From an uncultured Lachnospiraceae bacterium (lineage in GTDB: Bacteria; Bacillota; Clostridia; Lachnospirales; Lachnospiraceae), in NCBI GenBank assembly GCA_947652735.1, contig CANTEG010000015.1, positions 2,165 to 66,164 on the forward strand: 64,000 nt of DNA. Reading direction: 5' to 3'. The notes beneath the pieces were generated by a model. That model ran no database searches and had not been told where the DNA came from. It saw nothing but the letters and a program-made list of their open reading frames with translations. Numbering within the stretch: the first letter of the stretch is position 1; the number at the start of each line of letters is the position of its first letter. Positions 6,717 through 23,056 of this stretch are shown in pieces. Made by a program: the position numbers and the translations under genes.

Positions 6717-8072
6717 TTATTTTCCCAGTCTTGCAAGAAGCTCCTTACGCTTCTCCTCATTTCCAGGCTTTCCTAAAAGTGCAAACATGTTTTTCTTGTA
6801 GCTCTCAACGCCCGGCTGGTTAAATGGATTTACACCAAGTACATATCCGCTCATTCCACATGCAAATTCAAACACGTAGAACAGCTCTCCAAGAGATGCC
6901 TCGTCAATTTTCTCCATATTAACAAGAATATTTGGAACTCCTCCGTCAACATGGGCAAGAATTGTTCCGTTCATAGCACATTTATTTATAAAATCAACTG
7001 ACTTTCCTGTAAGATAATTAAGACCGTCAAGGTCAACAGGCTCTTCCTCCATAATAACCTCAAGCTTTGGATTTAACACATTGATAACAGTCTCAAAATG
7101 GTTCTTCGTACCCTCCTGAATAAACTGTCCCAGTGAGTGAAGGTCTGTTGTAAAGTCAACAGCCGTTGGGAATATACCCTTGCCGTCTTTTCCTTCGCTC
7201 TCACCGTAAAGCTGCTTCCACCACTCAGAAACATAATGCAGTGACGGCTCATAATTTGCAAGAATTTCCATGCCAAGACCCTTGCTGTGAAGTACATTTC
7301 TGACTGCCGCATACTTCATTGCATCGTTTCCGTCAAAATCATTTGCAAGGCAGTATTCCCTTGCATTTGCTGCACCTGCCATAAGTGCATCTATGTCTGC
7401 TCCGCTTGCCGCTATCGGAAGAAGTCCTACAGGCGTGAGCACGGAGAAACGTCCGCCTACATCATCAGGTACTACAAATGTCTCGTAGCCCTCCTCAGTT
7501 GCAAGTGTTTTAAGGGCACCCTTTGCTGCATCTGTCGTTGCATATATTCTCTTTGCTGCCTCAGACTTACCATACTTAGCTTCAAGCTTTTTCTTGAAAA
7601 TTCGGAATGCAATTGCAGGCTCCGTTGTCGTACCTGACTTTGAAATAACATTTACGGAAAAATCCTTATCTCCTATAACATCCATAAGCTGTGAAAGATA
7701 AGTGCTGCTTATATTATTTCCACAATAATAAATTTCAGGAGTTTTTCTAATCTCCTTGCTCACACAATTATAAAATCCGTGTCTTAACGCCTCAATTGCA
7801 GCTCTTGCTCCAAGATAGGAACCGCCAATTCCGATTACAATAAGAACATCTGAATCGCTCTGAATTTTTGCTGCTGCCTTCTTAATTCTTGCGAACTCAT
7901 CCTTGTCATAATTTACAGGCAAATCAATCCATCCAAGGAAATCATTTCCCTCACCTGTCTTGTCCAAAAGAGTTTTCTTAGCCGCTACAACTTTCTCAGA
8001 CATAGCTGCAACTTCATCCTTTGACGCCATAAACTCTGTGTTACTAAAATCAAATTTAATTGTCTGTGCCAT
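6717..8072 (-). CDS. pgi: Glucose-6-phosphate isomerase
   Basis: [38 protein letters not shown]. Confidence 0.97.
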
Positions 8073-9950: not shown

Positions 9951-11342
9951 ATGAACAAAGTACAAAACAACAAGGAGGAAATAACATTGAATCACAATAC
10001 AAACGCCTTTGAAAGTCTAAGTGTGCCAAAAGCATTATCAAAATTTATTCTGCCTGCTGTAATCAGCCAGCTTGCAACACTAATCCTAAACTTAACAGAT
10101 GCCTTTTTTGTAGGCAGGACAGGGGATACGTTCCAAATTTCTGCAATGACTGTCACACTCCCTTTGGTTATGACAATGACTGTAATCGCTACAATTTTTG
10201 GTGCAGGAGGAAACGCAAATGTAGCTGCTTCTCTAGGAACAAAAAATCCTAAGAGGGCAAAAACATTTTCCGTATTTGCCATATATACAGCAATCACTGT
10301 CATTGCCGTTATTTCCTTAATCATCTTTCTGTTTGAAAAACAACTTTTGGGGATTTTAGGCGCAGACGAAAATTCTTTCGGATTTTGTCAGGGATATGTC
10401 CTTTGGGTTTTGCATGCAGCATGTGTCCCTATGGTCTTTTCACAAGTAATGGCACAATTATTTACGGCAGAGGGAGAAACAAAACTTGCAAGTATTGGAA
10501 TTGCCGGGGCAGGATTACTGAATGTGGTTCTTGACCCGATATTTATTTTTGTTTTCAAACAGGGAATCGCGGGGGCAGGTATGGCTACTTGTATCTCAAA
10601 TTATTGCTCTATGGCATTTTTCTTATTCCAATATTACAAGAGACGAAACGTGACTGTTATTTCCCTTAATCCACGGGGATATTCTGCTAATAATGGTATT
10701 TGCAAAAGTGTACTATCTATCGGCATTCCGGCAGGATTAAGTATTTTTCTGATGAACTGCGTAGATTTCCTGCGTAATTACGTATTAGGCATACATGGGA
10801 CACAGGCGGATCTTGCTGCATGGGGTGTTGTTCAAAAATTGGGAAACGCATTTCTGCAAATTGCTATTGGTATTGAACAAGGTGTCCGTCCGCTGATTTC
10901 ATACAATTATAACGCTGCTTTGGGAAAACGCACAAAATCCCTTATCAATGGTTCAATGGTTGTTATGGGGATATATACATTAGCGTGTTTTTGCTTTGTC
11001 ATGCTGTTTCCAAATGCAATGGTTCGTTTATTTTTACCGATTGCAGATGTAATGCCAGTGGCAGTAGGTTTTCTCCGTATCTACATTTTCAGTATTTTCG
11101 GGATTGGCTTTTTAGAGTTGTTTAATGCTATTTTTCAAGCAATGGGGCAATGGAAAACCGCTACGGTTGGTATTGTGATTGGCAAGATTGTGTTAATGGT
11201 TCCGGCATTGCTTATTTTCTCCAAAATATGGAATGTGACTGGAATAATCGCCGCACAGCCATTTGCTGAAACATTAACCGTTGTTATACTGGCGATTGCT
11301 TATATACGATTTATACGCAAAAAAAAGGATTTATTTAACTGA
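9951..11342 (+). CDS. MATE-family efflux transporter
   Basis: About 12 TM segments; LNVVLDPIFIF...GIAGAGMAT, PLISYNYNA. Alternative TTG start at 9987. Confidence 0.92.
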   Translation: MNKVQNNKEEITLNHNTNAFESLSVPKALSKFILPAVISQLATLILNLTDAFFVGRTGDTFQISAMTVTLPLVMTMTVIATIFGAGGNANVAASLGTKNPKRAKTFSVFAIYTAITVIAVISLIIFLFEKQLLGILGADENSFGFCQGYVLWVLHAACVPMVFSQVMAQLFTAEGETKLASIGIAGAGLLNVVLDPIFIFVFKQGIAGAGMATCISNYCSMAFFLFQYYKRRNVTVISLNPRGYSANNGICKSVLSIGIPAGLSIFLMNCVDFLRNYVLGIHGTQADLAAWGVVQKLGNAFLQIAIGIEQGVRPLISYNYNAALGKRTKSLINGSMVVMGIYTLACFCFVMLFPNAMVRLFLPIADVMPVAVGFLRIYIFSIFGIGFLELFNAIFQAMGQWKTATVGIVIGKIVLMVPALLIFSKIWNVTGIIAAQPFAETLTVVILAIAYIRFIRKKKDLFN

Positions 11343-18276: not shown

Positions 18277-18834
18277 ATGGGTCCATCTGTTAAATTTGCA
18301 GATAATCTAATTTTAAAGGTTGAAAATGAAAGCTGTGCAAAGAATGTTTTAGAATTATACAAACGTAACAAATTAATCTTTGAACAGTTTGAGCCAACAC
18401 GCCCAAATGGTTTTTATACATTAGAATACCATAAACACATGTTACACAGAGAATATATGGCATATCTTTCAGGTAAGTTTATCAGATATTACATTTACTC
18501 TGACAAAAATTCCTCCCGGATATTAGGTTCCATCAATTATAACATTATAAATACTGATAAAAATAAATATGCAGAATTGGGATACAAGGTAGATATTATG
18601 CACCAACGACAGGGTATTGCTTATAATGCCTGCCTGTCCACATTTGACATACTCTCCAATGAATATGGCATTGACCGCATAGATGCCCGTATACATCCTG
18701 ACAATATTGCATCTATCAGGCTGGCAGAGAAAATCGGTTTTAAACCGATTTGTCTTGAGCCTAAGAGTGCAAATATACTTGGTCACTATGTTGACTTAAT
18801 CCGTTATTCAGTTAATATTTCCGAAATCCAGTAG
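18277..18834 (+). CDS. GNAT N-acetyltransferase (RimJ/RimL-like)
   Basis: AELGYKV...HQRQGIA...IHPDNIASIRLAEKIGF. Confidence 0.85.
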   Translation: MGPSVKFADNLILKVENESCAKNVLELYKRNKLIFEQFEPTRPNGFYTLEYHKHMLHREYMAYLSGKFIRYYIYSDKNSSRILGSINYNIINTDKNKYAELGYKVDIMHQRQGIAYNACLSTFDILSNEYGIDRIDARIHPDNIASIRLAEKIGFKPICLEPKSANILGHYVDLIRYSVNISEIQ

Positions 18835-20135
18835 CCAAAGTTTCCTGTCATAAGCTTTGTTCTTTTTGCAGGCACGAAAATGTTAAATCCAAACATATTG
18901 GCAAGATACTTTTCTTTGTTTGTATATACGCCTGGAACCCCTATAACGTAGGCTTCCTTTCTCTCAAACTTTACCTTTCCCATCATTATGTATCTGTAAT
19001 GATAATATCCATGCGATAAAAAGCTGTTTATACCAAGCTTCCAATTGCTCATGGCAAGCCGCCCTATATCGTGGGGAACAATTTTTACACACTCTACAAA
19101 CTGACTGTCTGCAAAAAGCGGCAGCCTTGGAAATGTATCAAGCATTTCCCTGCATACATCCATACAGCTTTTATTTTCCTGCGCTTCCTGATTATTTTCC
19201 CTGCTGCTTTTTTTGTTTCCATTATCAATGGCAGTTTCATCCATGCAGTCTTCACTTGTCCCTGCCATATCCTCTTGGTCTTCCTGATTATCTTGGGAAT
19301 TTACAACTTCCTCTACGTCCCTCTCATCAGTATCTGTCATGTTTCCTCTCGTTACATGAGCATTGTCGATACCATCTGCCTGACTCATGTCAGCCTCACT
19401 GGTATCTCTCATATTTTCACTGGGCATATTGACAGTTTCGGCACCTTCTGACTGCATTATATTAGCGCCACCCACATCATCATCAAATACACGATTATTC
19501 CCAACACTGCCATCTCGGCTTACATCATCTTCCTTAGCAACTGTCATATCATTACTGACATTTTCCGTTTTGTCATCCTGATTATTCCTAACATTCTCTG
19601 CAACGGTTTTATTTACACTATTTCCAGCTTTCCCTGTCTGACTCCTGCCACCTTGATTTTCTTTCTCTGTGGCAGCATTTATTCCGTCTATCTTTATCTC
19701 CTCAGGCTTAAATGGGTATTCATCCCACATACCCGCCAAAATTTCTCCATCATCGCACACAAAAAAAAGACCATCGTATGTATCAAAGGATGCCCCATCA
19801 CCTAACGGGCTATCCCAATCAAGCTCAAACCTTTTTGTAATGGTGTCCCGTTCTTCAGGAGTAAAATGCATTTCCTCCAAGAAGCGAACCTTTGGGGCTA
19901 TTGCACCCTCCGGTCTGTACATAAGATACACAAGGCACCTGCAAGCTTGTCTTTTATACATTTTCATTCCGACCTGTATTCGTGCCGTATCTGTTTTTTT
20001 GTCCATCTTATTTCGTCTTGAGGAAACAACCCTGTATTCAGATGCGACACGCTGCACTTTTATAAAACCTGCATTCTCACATCTTGTGTTATTTCGGTAT
20101 TTGAATATATAGGATACCCATCTACCTTGCTGCAT
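18804..20135 (-). CDS. Hypothetical protein (DUF6128-like C-terminus, low-complexity acidic centre)
   Basis: C-terminal DIGRL...NSFLSHGYYHY...GVPG...MFGF; N/D/E/S-rich middle. Convergent overlap of 31 nt with the GNAT gene. Confidence 0.6.
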   Translation of the reverse strand: MQQGRWVSYIFKYRNNTRCENAGFIKVQRVASEYRVVSSRRNKMDKKTDTARIQVGMKMYKRQACRCLVYLMYRPEGAIAPKVRFLEEMHFTPEERDTITKRFELDWDSPLGDGASFDTYDGLFFVCDDGEILAGMWDEYPFKPEEIKIDGINAATEKENQGGRSQTGKAGNSVNKTVAENVRNNQDDKTENVSNDMTVAKEDDVSRDGSVGNNRVFDDDVGGANIMQSEGAETVNMPSENMRDTSEADMSQADGIDNAHVTRGNMTDTDERDVEEVVNSQDNQEDQEDMAGTSEDCMDETAIDNGNKKSSRENNQEAQENKSCMDVCREMLDTFPRLPLFADSQFVECVKIVPHDIGRLAMSNWKLGINSFLSHGYYHYRYIMMGKVKFERKEAYVIGVPGVYTNKEKYLANMFGFNIFVPAKRTKLMTGNFGYWISEILTE

Positions 20136-20343
20136 AGCAAAACCTCACTTCCCCTTAATTATTGTCCGAGCCATAAGGCGAAAATCTCCACACGCTTTTG
20201 CGCCTCTCCGTCATAAGCCGGTGAACCTGCGTCCAATAACACTTATAAATATATATGCCATGTGAGGTGAAAATATAACACGCTTATTAGAAATATCATA
20301 TACATTACCTATAATAAAAAATATAGTGTAAAATATTAAAACC

Positions 20344-20372
20344 TTGAATACATGTTATTTGCGTGTTATACT
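20344..20372 (+). promoter_or_regulatory. sigA promoter of the small toxin-like gene
   Basis: TTGAAT-N17-TATACT with extended TG. Confidence 0.75.
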
Positions 20373-20453
20373 ACACTTGTATAATTGAAAAGAAAGTCGG
20401 ATGTGGTTTTCGATTGTCAAATGCCCTCTAGTATTAAAGGAGGGTGATGCCCC

Positions 20454-20540
20454 ATGAACACATTAGAAGTTCTCACTCTATTGTTAGTTGTTTTTGCGGC
20501 TTTGTCATACATAGACAGTCATTTTAACAAAAAGAAATAG
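20454..20540 (+). CDS. 28-aa type I toxin-like membrane peptide
   Basis: Not in the ORF track. AAAGGAGGGTGA RBS; MNTLEVLTLLLVVFAALSYIDSHFNKKK is one TM helix plus a basic tail. Confidence 0.75.
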   Translation: MNTLEVLTLLLVVFAALSYIDSHFNKKK

Positions 20541-20632
20541 CATCCTGACCCCTAAGAAAAGTTTAGATGCTAGTTCTTTTACATTTTGAATTTTACTGAG
20601 GGCGCATCGGAACTATATCCGATTGCCTTTCT
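20529..20632 (-). ncRNA. Putative antisense antitoxin RNA
   Basis: Own promoter at 20639-20667; terminator hairpin TAGCATC/GATGCTA (20538-20572) followed by a U-tract that overlaps the toxin stop codon. Confidence 0.65.
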
Positions 20633-20638
20633 GATTAA

Positions 20639-20667
20639 ATTATACACTAGGGTGGCTGAGAAATCAA
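20639..20667 (-). promoter_or_regulatory. sigA promoter of the antisense RNA
   Basis: TTGATT-N17-TATAAT on the minus strand. Confidence 0.75.
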
Positions 20668-20704
20668 CTACCCTTTTAAATTTGTATATATTTGACACAT
20701 TAGC

Positions 20705-21190
20705 TTATTTCCCTACCAAACTATCATATTCCTGATTTGCCAGTTCCAGTTGTTTTATATAATCTGCTTTCATACGCTCGTGCCTTTTTATCTGATACAC
20801 AAAATTGTTCAAATTGGCGGAGCCACCCTTTTCCTCCTGCTTACAATGTATGTACATCGGGAAATGTTTCATAACACGTCTTACTGTATATCCAACAAAT
20901 GAAACAATTCCACCAAATATAATGATAGTAACATATGTATACGACAGCATATTCATTAAAAAGCCATATGGATTTGTAAGTATCCACATAAGCATCACTA
21001 TTGATATTACAACAAATACACATGTTGTCTTAAAGTCATTGTTTAATCTTTCTAATGCAAGCTTAAAACTGCTTATCTCTTTTTCCTCAATACCAACACT
21101 GATTCCAAGACTTTCAATTTTGGCCTCAAGCTGTTTCATCTGCTTATACTGTTCTGTGGTAACGTCATCTTCTTTATATGATAACTGCAC
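20705..21190 (-). CDS. Hypothetical 161-aa protein (coiled coil - 2 TM - coiled coil), paralog 1
   Basis: GTG start with GAGGGG RBS; colinear with 24112-24597. Confidence 0.75.
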   Translation of the reverse strand: MQLSYKEDDVTTEQYKQMKQLEAKIESLGISVGIEEKEISSFKLALERLNNDFKTTCVFVVISIVMLMWILTNPYGFLMNMLSYTYVTIIIFGGIVSFVGYTVRRVMKHFPMYIHCKQEEKGGSANLNNFVYQIKRHERMKADYIKQLELANQEYDSLVGK

Positions 21191-21207
21191 ACTGATTCCT
21201 CCCCTCG

Positions 21208-21891
21208 TTACACATCAGCCTGCAAGAGCTGTCCAGCATGGTTAAAGACATATTGTACGCCAACCCTACCTGCAATGTCCAAATCATGTGTAACAATTAT
21301 AACAGTCTTTCCTCTTTCATTTAGCTTACATAACTGTTCCACAATTATATCTTTGTTGTCCACATCCAATGCACCTGTAGGTTCATCTGCCAAAATAACC
21401 TCAGGGTCATTTACAATCGCCCTTGCTATCGATATCCGCTGCTTTTCTCCACCTGATAATTCATTCACATTTCTGTGCATATAGTCCGCCATATTTACAT
21501 CTTCAAGGGCTTTCTCTATCTTCTCTTTGTATTCACACTTTCTAATTTTTTTATCAAACATAAGCGGCACTGATACATTGTCATACACATTTCTATATGG
21601 TATTAAACCATTATTTTGCAATACATATCCAAAATATTTATTTCTGACATGTGACTTTTCACGCTCCGTATAATCATCAGTATTAATGCTATTTAAAAAA
21701 TACTGTCCTGATGTAATCTTGTCTATGCAGCCAATTATATTAAGTAATGTGGATTTGCCTATACCTGAAGGACCCGTAATGGCAATGAAATCCCCCTTAT
21801 TTACACGGAAATTAACATTATTTAATGGTGTGATTTTTTTATTCTTACCATCACTATATTCTTTTTTTACTCCCTTAAGTTCAATTATCAT
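21208..21891 (-). CDS. ABC transporter ATP-binding protein (LolD/MacB-type)
   Basis: GPSGIGKST, LSGGEKQR, LADEPTGALD, IVTHD. Confidence 0.93.
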   Translation of the reverse strand: MIIELKGVKKEYSDGKNKKITPLNNVNFRVNKGDFIAITGPSGIGKSTLLNIIGCIDKITSGQYFLNSINTDDYTEREKSHVRNKYFGYVLQNNGLIPYRNVYDNVSVPLMFDKKIRKCEYKEKIEKALEDVNMADYMHRNVNELSGGEKQRISIARAIVNDPEVILADEPTGALDVDNKDIIVEQLCKLNERGKTVIIVTHDLDIAGRVGVQYVFNHAGQLLQADV

Positions 21892-21913
21892 AACGCACTC
21901 CAATTCCAAAATA

Positions 21914-23056
21914 TTAAATATCTCTCTCAATTAAATCTATAATATGTTCCCGTTTCCAACATGCTCCAACAATCAGGGTCGAACCCATATACAATAAAAC
22001 AATAATCAAAAGTACAGCCAAACTATAATAAAGACTTATATAACCATCTAAAATTCCCTTTTTCATTAAAATGATGGAAACCGTCTCTCCCACAACCGAA
22101 CCAAGCACCGCCGATAATAATCCGTTAATTTTTATGAGCATTAATGCTTCCGTATAACCTGCTCCTTCAAGAAGCAGCACACCCAATTCCCGTCTTCTTC
22201 TGATAACGGAAATGTATATGCTTCCCAAAAACACAGATAACCCAACAATAAGCCCTGCTATCACAAATACCTTTTTCTGGTTTTTTTCATATATCAGATG
22301 CTCCTCGTTTACTCCGATTACATCATTACCATCACTTACATCACCGATATTTTCAAACAAAGACTCGAGCACATCACTTTCATACTTGTCATTAGGTTCC
22401 AATGTAAAAATACCCATATTGTCATCTCCACCGTAAAATGCATTGTCTGTCGTTATGATTGCATCTGCCAAATAAAGTTCATCATCCAAATCCACAATAA
22501 GCATATCATATATGAGATTCCCCTTGCCTGTCGGATAGTAAACCGCGTCCATGTCAAGAATACCACATACAGTTTTTTTCTTTTCAATAGGGGTTCCTGC
22601 CATATCATATCCTGAAACCTTTACAGTGTCTCCTATATCATATAGTTTCCCCAAGGACTTTGAAATAATTACCTGATTGTCACTTTCAATCGCTTTACCT
22701 TTTTTAAAGCTGTACGATATTGTATCTGCCAGAAATTTGTCATAAACATATGCCTCGCATACATTTTCGTCACACATCACACCTGTATGTCCGACAAAAT
22801 GTAACGTCCCATATTCCCGTGTTAGTTTTTCTATATCTGAATATGTATAATCCTCATTTTCAACAGTAATAAAGACCGTGTTTGAAAGCCTTTCCAATAA
22901 ACGGATATGCTTCTTTACATATCCCATGTTACAGAAGAAAAACAAACCTACAAAAGAAAGGGCAACTGAAAATATAAATATTCTGAAATTTTCTCTTTTG
23001 TCTGTCAAAAGGTCTTTTAAAACATAATTTATTTTCTTCAAAATTCCACCTGCCAT
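21914..23056 (-). CDS. ABC transporter permease (FtsX/MacB-like)
   Basis: N-terminal TM, large extracellular loop, RRRRELGVLLLEGA, three C-terminal TMs. Confidence 0.8.
   Translation of the reverse strand: MAGGILKKINYVLKDLLTDKRENFRIFIFSVALSFVGLFFFCNMGYVKKHIRLLERLSNTVFITVENEDYTYSDIEKLTREYGTLHFVGHTGVMCDENVCEAYVYDKFLADTISYSFKKGKAIESDNQVIISKSLGKLYDIGDTVKVSGYDMAGTPIEKKKTVCGILDMDAVYYPTGKGNLIYDMLIVDLDDELYLADAIITTDNAFYGGDDNMGIFTLEPNDKYESDVLESLFENIGDVSDGNDVIGVNEEHLIYEKNQKKVFVIAGLIVGLSVFLGSIYISVIRRRRELGVLLLEGAGYTEALMLIKINGLLSAVLGSVVGETVSIILMKKGILDGYISLYYSLAVLLIIVLLYMGSTLIVGACWKREHIIDLIERDI

Follow-up and report, generated by a model that had tools for sequence, protein, structure and literature searches.

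What is the function of an element of about 340 bases that holds two facing promoters and a 28-codon open reading frame (ORF) absent from the ORF track? The element lies at positions 20344–20685 of a 64,000-nucleotide stretch of DNA from an uncultured Lachnospiraceae bacterium (GenBank assembly GCA_947652735.1, contig CANTEG010000015.1); we refer to this whole stretch as the window. A sequence-only reading had described 20344–20667 as a complete locus resembling type I toxin-antitoxin systems, and we found that the element extends past that end to ~20685. Two features mark such systems: a small (<60 aa) hydrophobic, membrane-targeted peptide with a dedicated mRNA, and an antisense RNA that pairs with the toxin mRNA. 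The first is present as the 28-aa ORF, which encodes one helix and a KKK tail. For the second, a convergent promoter and a terminator are conserved, and transcription was seen in relatives of the locus as unstranded contigs. We concluded that the element probably (with a probability of roughly 0.7) represents, in intact form, a type I toxin-antitoxin-like module that had not been described and is widespread among Lachnospiraceae and their temperate phages. The toxin-antitoxin-like character proposed by the sequence-only reading gained support from an architecture conserved with covariation at more than 100 loci, from purifying selection on the ORF, and from the transcription of relatives.

Relatives of the locus and selection on its peptide

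A tblastn search with the peptide, which the sequence-only reading had suggested, gave one weak match when run against phage records. The match lay on a human-faecal phage scaffold, where the entire locus proved to be kept (promoter, 5′ untranslated region (UTR), ORF and 3′ region); the search against plasmids gave no match. DNA patterns built from the resulting pair of sequences located the element in 16 IMG/VR viral contigs, for a total of 17 phage or viral contigs (L001–L017). A genome scan, for which the pattern was degenerate and restricted to codons 14–23, located at least 120 loci (L018–L137) in species-representative genomes, from at least about 114 assemblies. Nearly all of the loci belong to Lachnospiraceae (Roseburia, Agathobacter, Dorea, Lachnospira, Acetatifactor, Hungatella, Lacrimispora, Mediterraneibacter, Hominiventricola and others), and the carrier genomes came from the gut of human, mouse, pig and ruminant. 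A few carrier metagenome bins were labelled Bacteroides, Alistipes or Tenericutes, and these labels are probably binning errors. The window sequence matches mouse-gut metagenomes.

Several genomes hold two or three copies of the element; within the window, neither blastn nor tblastn found a second copy. Locus L026 is a tandem pair (283–312 and 1060–1089, 777 nt apart), and the metagenome-assembled genomes CAJLRL01, CANDQP01, CAJTOH01, CAJUEX01 and CATNCF01 each carry two or three copies on separate contigs.

The encoded peptides fall into two main types, MS[IV]MEVLTLLLV[LI]FAALSYIDNHKKK (26 aa) and MNTxEVLTLxLVIFAALSYID[ND]HN(N)KKK (27–28 aa), and the family consensus is MNTxEVLTLLLVIFAALSYIDNHxxKKK. 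Selection was estimated on codons 2–13, which lie outside the search pattern and therefore give an unbiased value. For these codons pS was 0.62 and pN was 0.17 (pN/pS = 0.275). Entropy at codon positions 1, 2 and 3 was 0.66, 0.21 and 1.21, and the two alternative frames contained stops in 73/73 and 71/73 sequences. These results indicate that the ORF is under purifying selection and evolves as a protein. The KKK tail was spelled AAAAAGAAA (AAA-AAG-AAA, one of eight synonymous spellings) in all 95 unique KKK tails, and synonymous sites in the remainder of the gene were near saturation. The AAA-AAG-AAA stretch is also the U-tract of the predicted antisense terminator; that is, the frozen spelling is as predicted if the tail has a dual role in coding and in termination.

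When seven peptides, the window’s included, were looked up in a collection of 15 billion proteins, only two were present, and the matching protein cluster bore no name beyond ‘hypothetical protein’. Because the peptide is nearly absent from the protein collection, the omission of the gene from the ORF track, which the sequence-only reading had noted, holds generally. For annotation, the family shows that comparative RNA and codon evidence suffices to call a gene of only 28 codons with confidence.

We sought transcripts of the family in RNA runs. The window sequence itself was absent from all runs searched. Locus L052 comes from the cultured strain Roseburia faecis JCM 17581, in which its positions 822–1137 correspond to about 2,920,800–2,921,140 of NZ_CP173697.1. 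This locus (ATG at 904; 3′ end predicted at ~1134) was represented in three runs by metatranscriptome contigs covering 889–1134, 764–1060 and 861–1050, the last at a depth of 42.6. Locus L003 (ATG at 7485, predicted start at ~7408) was represented by contigs covering 7392–7646, 7415–7661, 7335–7574 and 7442–7622, from four independent runs. The L052 contig 889–1134 and the L003 contig 7415–7661 are similar in extent to the predicted mRNA, and the flanks of both loci had zero or far less coverage in gut metatranscriptomes. Related variants were also present in pig-gut runs. The data show that relatives of the locus are expressed in vivo, as unstranded contigs in which sense and antisense are not separable.

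RNA structure, conserved promoters and a proposed switch

Complementarity between the 5′ UTR and the 3′ end of the mRNA had been noted from the sequence; it proved to be real and longer than noted, because 20379–20433 pairs with 20594–20646. The added pairs include the extreme 5′ end of the predicted mRNA (GTATAATT/AATTATAC, that is, GUAUAAUU with AAUUAUAC). The predicted mRNA (20379–20685) folds at −92.2 kcal/mol, compared with −63.5 ± 5.0 kcal/mol for dinucleotide shuffles (z = −5.7, 0/100 as good), and the predicted antisense RNA folds at −31.9 kcal/mol (z = −4.0).

Covariation was assessed by projecting the minimum-free-energy structure of the window onto an 80-sequence alignment (A2) and counting pairs. 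Results showed that the 54 modelled pairs, in 8 helices, were paired in 88.6% of cells, versus 36–45% when the 3′ partners were slid by 1–3 columns. Changes on both sides were found at 22 pairs (12.3 ± 1.8 in shuffles, 0/500 as high), and the covariation score was 0.161, compared with 0.132 in shuffles (0/500 as high) and at most 0.079 when slid. The counts are conservative, because some cells scored as unpaired are alignment slips. The five long-range helices were paired in 85–97.5% of cells across the 80 relatives, with compensatory changes such as U-A to C-G at columns 46:306 (42 versus 21 sequences), G-C to A-U at 89:291, and U-A to C-G at 21:334. An alignment-free test gave −42.3 kcal/mol for cognate 5′ and 3′ strands and −39.3 kcal/mol for non-cognate strands (permutation p ≤ 1e-4); shuffled 3′ strands paired at −16.8 kcal/mol. 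RNAalifold, run on a MAFFT alignment, recovered the GCCCUC:GAGGGC helix alone, because indels misplace the other helices. As judged from these comparisons among relatives, the long-range pairing between the two ends of the mRNA is under selection.

The promoters required a comparison of a similar kind. In this AT-rich spacer, promoter-like matches by themselves are not significant (7 found versus 5.5 expected), so the case for them comes from conservation in relatives. Among 78 representatives (<95% mutual identity, mean 75%), the antisense promoter had TATAAT in 74, the 17-nt spacer in 75, and a score of 10–11 out of 12 in 72. The sense promoter scored 9–11 out of 12 in 69/78 and had the 17-nt spacer in 62/78; shuffled sequence mostly scored 7–8. 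The listed antisense −35 boxes (TTGATT, TTGAAA, TTGCAA) all start with TTG and sit atop the 3′ hairpin of the mRNA, in which 7 of 8 stem pairs showed changes on both sides across the family. That the TTG is fixed while the surrounding stem covaries freely suggests that it is constrained beyond base pairing. The stem at the stop codon covaries as well, including a UAG/UAA switch that occurs together with a change in the partner base. A simple terminator scan found no site at the locus, because both hairpin loops exceed the loop limit of the scan.

The loop of the stop-codon hairpin (window 20545–20565; A2 columns 226–245) reads ACCGYCCAAAGU in 58/104 unique loci under a loose pattern, and its sequence is kept although the stem covaries. 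By analogy with the contact described for SR4 and bsrG, this loop could be a loop-loop site of first contact between the mRNA and the antisense RNA.

Within the 5′ UTR, the element GCCCUCU is nearly invariant in the family and has two alternative partners, the Shine-Dalgarno (SD) sequence GGAGGGU and the GAGGGC of the 3′ region (20598–20603). We compared these pairings by partition-function folds of 79 family members. In the full-length mRNA, the mean probability that GCCCUCU pairs with the 3′ strand was 0.67, that it pairs with the SD was 0.20, and that the SD is unpaired was 0.22; the corresponding values for the window were 0.84, 0.02 and 0.34. When the 3′ strand was absent, as in a nascent transcript, or blocked, as if bound by the antisense RNA, the family means were 0, 0.86–0.87 and 0.04, and the window values were 0, 0.99 and 0.01. 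The effect had the same direction in 74 of the 79 sequences. Because the predicted antisense RNA covers the 3′ partner of GCCCUCU, its binding should close the ribosome-binding site (RBS).

A specific mechanism can be proposed from these folds. The plus strand would be transcribed into an mRNA of ~300 nt for a single-helix membrane peptide of 28 residues, the presumed toxin, and the convergent promoter would yield a ~105-nt antisense RNA, the presumed antitoxin, fully complementary to the 3′ UTR of the mRNA. During mRNA synthesis, GCCCUCU would pair with the SD and keep the ribosome off. Once the 3′ UTR is completed, two partners would compete for it, the 5′ UTR and the antisense RNA. Should the 5′ UTR take it, a closure of ~40 bp would form and withdraw GCCCUCU, leaving the RBS weakly paired and the mRNA translatable; the closed mRNA would probably also be resistant to nucleases. 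Should the antisense RNA take it, the RBS would stay locked within an mRNA that also bears a ~105 bp duplex, a likely substrate of RNase III. The antisense RNA could enter at the linker at 20573–20593 and at the complementary loops of the stop-codon hairpins. If its supply stopped, translation of the stable closed mRNA would go ahead, and the resulting peptide would harm the membrane. We regard this RNA switch as a tentative model whose chances fall somewhat short of even.

A broader proposal is also tentative. The loci may form a new type I family, specific to Lachnospiraceae and their temperate phages and built on a switch with three partners, in which GCCCUCU is shared by the RBS and the mRNA’s own 3′ end; we think it rather less than an even bet. 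With similar reserve, we suggest that the antitoxin RNA might never touch the RBS and might close it from ~170 nt away by taking the 3′ partner. Equally tentative is the idea that 5′-3′ closure turns the mRNA ‘on’, in reverse of its role in hok and aapA1.

Several points weigh against the toxin-antitoxin interpretation and the switch proposed for it. Homology to any proven toxin was below threshold in Pfam, NCBIfam, PHROGs, PDB, hhalign and BLASTP comparisons. The helix between the anti-SD element and the SD is almost invariant, so covariation cannot test it, and thermodynamic folding is the sole basis of the modelled switch. In that folding, the SD is only 22–34% unpaired in the full-length mRNA, because a local GG.GG/CCCC hairpin forms. 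The long-range pairing in hok/sok and aapA1 is inhibitory, opposite in sign to what is proposed here. The RNA evidence consists of unstranded contigs from relatives, so the antisense transcript is deduced from its conserved promoter and terminator, and the antisense TATAAT also lies in helix 1 of the long-range pairing, so its conservation could be partly structural.

Anatomy, genomic setting and alternative explanations

The features of the window copy are collected in Table 1. Both promoters and the 28-aa ORF with its KKK tail were found where the sequence-only reading had placed them, and so was the stop codon inside a hairpin with a minus-strand tract, the predicted antisense terminator. 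Transcription starts, transcript ends and the 75-nt 5′ UTR are predictions from sequence.

Table 1. Features of the element at window positions 20344–20685
Feature	Position	Strand	Details
Sense (toxin mRNA) promoter, TTGAAT-17-TGn-TATACT	20344–20372	+	9/12 consensus matches, TG-extended
Predicted toxin mRNA, ~300 nt	20379–20685	+	Start predicted 7 nt past the −10 box; end after the 3′ hairpin and T-run
5′ strand of the long-distance interaction: GUAUAAUU, AGAAAG, UCGGAUGUGG, UUUUCGAU, GCCCUC-U-AGUA	20379–20433	+	
GCCCUCU, proposed anti-SD element	20423–20429	+	Alternative partner GAGGGC in the 3′ region
SD region/RBS, AAAGGAGGGT (AAAGGAGGGU)	20436–20445	+	8 nt 5′ of ATG; kept across the family
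28-aa ORF MNTLEVLTLLLVVFAALSYIDSHFNKKK, candidate toxin	20454–20540	+	Single hydrophobic helix and Lys tail (KKK)
Stop-codon hairpin, predicted antisense terminator	20530–20580		Core TAGCATC...GATGCTA, lengthened by A-tract/U-tract pairing
3′ strand of the long-distance interaction: UACU-GAGGGC, AUCGG, CUAUAUCCGA, CUUUCU, AAUUAUAC	20594–20646	+	
Antisense promoter, TTGATT-17-TATAAT	20667–20639	−	10/12 matches; −35 box within the mRNA 3′ hairpin
Predicted antisense (candidate antitoxin) RNA, ~105 nt	20528–20632	−	5′ hairpin AAUCGGA/UCCGAU, A/U-rich single-stranded middle, terminator hairpin
3′ hairpin AGGGUGG...CUACCCU then UUUU, predicted toxin-mRNA terminator	20649–20678	+	

The arms of the stop-codon hairpin are 20530–20544 and 20566–20580, its TAGCATC/GATGCTA core includes the stop codon, and the minus strand carries UUUCUUUUU directly after it. 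The predicted antisense RNA (20632–20528) overlaps the stop codon and the last Lys codons of the ORF, and most of the 3′ strand of the long-distance interaction, up to ~20632, is also its target. It reads in the same sense as the 5′-UTR element, with no complementarity between the two. The linker predicted to be single-stranded is ~21 nt long, and a direct repeat, GATGCCC(T/C), occurs at 20418–20428 and 20447–20453.

A few relatives depart from this anatomy. In L098, L131 and L023, the SD region is deleted between the direct repeat GATGCCCT in the 5′ UTR and its second copy just before the ATG, and the ORF is intact despite the loss of the RBS; such copies appear to have been inactivated, which would be expected of a gene whose translation does harm. 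Locus L029 (~2070–2150) has four tandem copies of a 17-nt unit, GAACTTCAGTTCTTTTT, in place of the long-range 5′ strand, and in L038, L084 and L106 the 5′ UTR is interrupted by one small palindromic hairpin, GAGAACnnnAGTTCTT; these may represent a miniature insertion element or repeat expansion. The viral contig L005 (minus strand, ~10354–10375) has the same peptide, MNTMEILTLLLVIFAALSYRDNHCNKKK, the same SD and the GGUGAUGCCC spacer, with 5′ and 3′ UTRs unrelated to those of the rest of the family. The toxin gene may be exchangeable between regulatory RNA modules.

We clustered the neighbours of about 110 loci. Recurrent neighbours were an HNH endonuclease (15 loci), an ECF-like sigma factor, GmrSD, a CI-type HTH repressor ~220 nt downstream on the opposite strand, and a tyrosine integrase ~620 nt upstream. 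These point to the lysogeny region of temperate phages or other mobile elements as the usual home of the module, and because it sits there, its likely role, by analogy, would be prophage retention or the exclusion of other phages. The type I modules of Clostridioides difficile reportedly maintain mobile elements, to go by the title of one study. In 11 loci (e.g. L035), an 87–95-aa ORF that matches nothing in Pfam or PHROGs lies ~165 nt upstream of the ATG, often ending just before the sense promoter, and P0012 (two contigs) is an in-frame fusion of this ORF and the toxin peptide.

The window copy is chromosomal, with no mobile-element genes beside it: no tRNA gene was found in the window, and no integrase among the genes examined beside the module. 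Its site is a spacer of 570 bp, with a DUF6128 gene on one side and an ABC operon on the other. The former (18804–20135, minus strand) encodes a protein of 443 aa, whose C-terminus holds a DUF6128 domain and whose long middle region is acidic and of low complexity; the gene is transcribed divergently, and its start lies ~240 nt from that of the predicted toxin mRNA. The products of the operon (20705–23056, minus strand) are a membrane protein of 161 aa, an ABC ATPase of the MacB/lactococcin-972 type, and a 380-aa protein that matches no family. Against NCBIfam, the ATPase scored best with TIGR03608 (‘putative bacteriocin export ABC transporter’), at 215.7 bits where the cut-off is 254.85; it is also near MacB/LolD/FtsE types. 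GC content is 0.34–0.35 in 20705–23056 and ~0.40 in the 12 kb upstream. Because the 3′ hairpin of the mRNA has no T-run on the minus strand, read-through from the ABC operon could contribute further antisense RNA across the 3′ UTR of the toxin mRNA.

The sequence-only reading had supposed that the module stabilises this adjacent ABC island. Comparison gave that idea no support: of the loci listed, L078, the ortholog, is alone in having this neighbour, and prophage genes are what usually adjoin the module. We rejected a link to ABC transporters across the family, since the ‘ABC cluster’ is the ABC ATPase superfamily, varied in sequence, distance and strand.

Which other functions would fit these observations? 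The strongest competitor, which we nonetheless judge unlikely, is a regulated, non-toxic small membrane protein that acts in superinfection exclusion or signalling and is tuned by a cis-antisense RNA, with no addiction or killing. Many small single-helix proteins are harmless, the family never reaches threshold against proven toxins, and a position in a lysogeny module fits a prophage accessory gene (‘moron’) equally well. Layered repression by anti-SD element, 3′ antisense RNA and closed mRNA is nevertheless the signature of a product that must not be made, and it is specifically the RBS that the decayed copies have lost. Several genomes carry multiple copies, and a product of 26–28 aa with one helix and a Lys tail matches the type I toxins of C. 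difficile phages (PMC6563280).

We consider it improbable that the peptide is holin-like or times lysis in temperate phages, as a distant member of the Hol-Tox group. The many copies on viral contigs would suit such a role, as would weak matches to the Hol_Tox family in 10/24 members (best E-value 0.027), but these fall below the Pfam cut-off and are no better than chance transmembrane matches, and hhalign gave 0.6%. Moreover, the neighbours are an integrase, a CI-like repressor and an HNH endonuclease rather than a lysis cassette, and chromosomal copies such as that of the window have no adjoining phage genes.

An exported peptide (a leaderless bacteriocin or one resembling modulins), with the MacB/lactococcin-972-type transporter serving for export or immunity, is very improbable. 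What recommends it is the adjoining operon itself, with its 161-aa membrane protein, sub-cut-off TIGR03608 ATPase and 380-aa protein. The peptide is uniformly hydrophobic and not amphipathic, phage-borne copies lack the transporter, and apart from L078 the ABC ATPases near listed loci differ in sequence, distance and strand. Least credible of all is a structured non-coding RNA with an incidental ORF: the very strong conservation of RNA structure would suit it, but pN/pS of 0.275, third-position variation, a kept SD and ATG, stops in the other frames, and the retention of peptide and SD behind unrelated UTRs in L005 are at odds with it.

The toxin-antitoxin interpretation remains the one we prefer. 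Lachnospiraceae are among the most abundant mammalian gut bacteria, and the family, present in at least 114 species-representative genomes and many gut phage contigs, escapes gene callers as well as all four libraries of protein and RNA families against which it was searched. Should the peptide prove toxic, gut commensals would be shown to carry a widespread module for retaining prophages or excluding phages, and the 80 natural variants would provide a model RNA switch in which 3′ antisense binding controls a distant RBS. A toxic peptide would also offer a compact counter-selection marker for the genetically difficult Lachnospiraceae; C. difficile type I toxins are said, at the level of a report’s title, to have been used as counter-selection.

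Comparison with known families and systems

No family reached threshold in searches of Pfam, NCBIfam, PHROGs, Rfam and PDB, and a full-text literature search for the peptide strings found no paper. A cmscan of 19500–21500 against Rfam 15 (E ≤ 10) gave chance-level matches only (best 21.4 bits versus a gathering threshold of 43), none of them to a toxin-antitoxin RNA. The window peptide matched neither Pfam Hol_Tox (PF16935) nor Hok nor Fst. The weak Hol_Tox matches of other members did not exceed chance transmembrane matches (SPT_ssu-like, for example), and an individually scored member reached 12.7 bits versus the 23.3 cut-off, whereas TxpA, BsrG and BsrE scored 31–51 bits. Of these three sequences, TxpA was confirmed by search, and BsrG and BsrE were validated only by their Hol_Tox matches. 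BLASTP found nothing, and the hhalign probability of 0.6% was obtained against a TxpA profile of four sequences, a thin one because the homolog search found only three close Bacillus proteins. Membership in the Hol_Tox/TxpA peptide family was therefore not supported, given the sub-threshold profile, the hhalign result and the empty BLASTP. For the earlier typing as TxpA/RatA- and Fst-like, this means that the layout with a 3′-overlapping antisense RNA stands, and that the assignment to those peptide families, Fst included, does not.

In hok/sok of Gram-negative plasmids and aapA1/IsoA1 of Helicobacter pylori, the two ends of the toxin mRNA pair and so close it, as is predicted at this locus; in hok, a 3′ element (fbi) takes part in this closure. 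There the closed mRNA stays inert pending processing of its 3′ end, and the antisense RNA lies over the 5′ or translation-initiation region. At this locus the predicted antisense RNA lies over the 3′ strand, and the closed form is predicted to be translatable. Neither system has a sequence relationship to the family, and membership in hok/sok was rejected, since there is no Hok match, the antisense RNA is at the 3′ end, and 5′-3′ closure is the sole shared trait. One passage of PMC6733600 describes early-forming structures that keep the RBS shut during transcription of the toxin mRNA.

The par (fst/RNAII) system of Enterococcus faecalis plasmid pAD1 resembles the module in its convergent transcription across a shared terminator and its short one-helix membrane peptide. 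Pairing of the two par RNAs also involves 5′ direct repeats, which span the start region. The antisense RNA of the present module instead resembles the 5′ UTR rather than complementing it, and membership in Fst/RNAII (par) was rejected because no Fst family match was found and the antisense RNA is not complementary to a 5′ direct-repeat element.

The type I modules of C. difficile (Maikova 2018; Peltier 2020; PMC6563280) are, like ours, from Clostridia, and are carried by prophages or adjacent to CRISPR arrays. Their toxins have 30–56 aa, a hydrophobic N-terminus and a lysine-rich C-terminus, and a role of the prophage-retention or phage-exclusion type has been reported for them (PMC6563280). 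According to the same source, homology searches found almost no type I toxins in Clostridia besides C. difficile, and Lachnospiraceae appear only through TxpA/Fst-like hits in Clostridium bolteae and C. asparagiforme (Fozo 2010).

The closest likeness is to bsrG/SR4, bsrE/SR5, txpA/RatA and yonT/SR6 of Bacillus subtilis prophages and prophage-like elements, which also encode a small hydrophobic peptide with a basic C-terminus. In these prophage-borne systems convergent transcription yields an antisense RNA of ~100 nt that overlaps both the mRNA and the ORF at their 3′ ends (PMC8594479). The genetic organisation given there for TxpA/RatA and BsrE-G-H is found here too, since the predicted antisense RNA overlaps the stop codon and the last Lys codons; the same paper, which presents T1TAdb, names 3′-overlapping antisense RNAs, SD/anti-SD pairs and 5′-3′ interactions as determinants of Gram-positive families. 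Differences are that the peptide has 26–28 aa, versus 30–59 aa in BsrE, BsrG and TxpA, that TxpA, BsrG and BsrE pass the Hol_Tox threshold and the present family does not, and that the hosts are Lachnospiraceae (Clostridia), not Bacilli. Central to the present module is the predicted ~40 bp closure whose 3′ strand is the antisense target. In bsrG, SR4 binding at the 3′ region lengthens SD sequestration from 4 to 8 bp, besides promoting decay (PMC3834814); that is, antisense binding at the 3′ end alters the pairing of a distant SD, as is predicted here. Decay that depends on RNase III is inferred for our module from the predicted perfect duplex of ~105 bp. By analogy in its antisense RNA that overlaps the 3′ end and reaches into the ORF, its SD/anti-SD pair and its prophage location, the module would work like the class of TxpA/RatA and BsrG/SR4.

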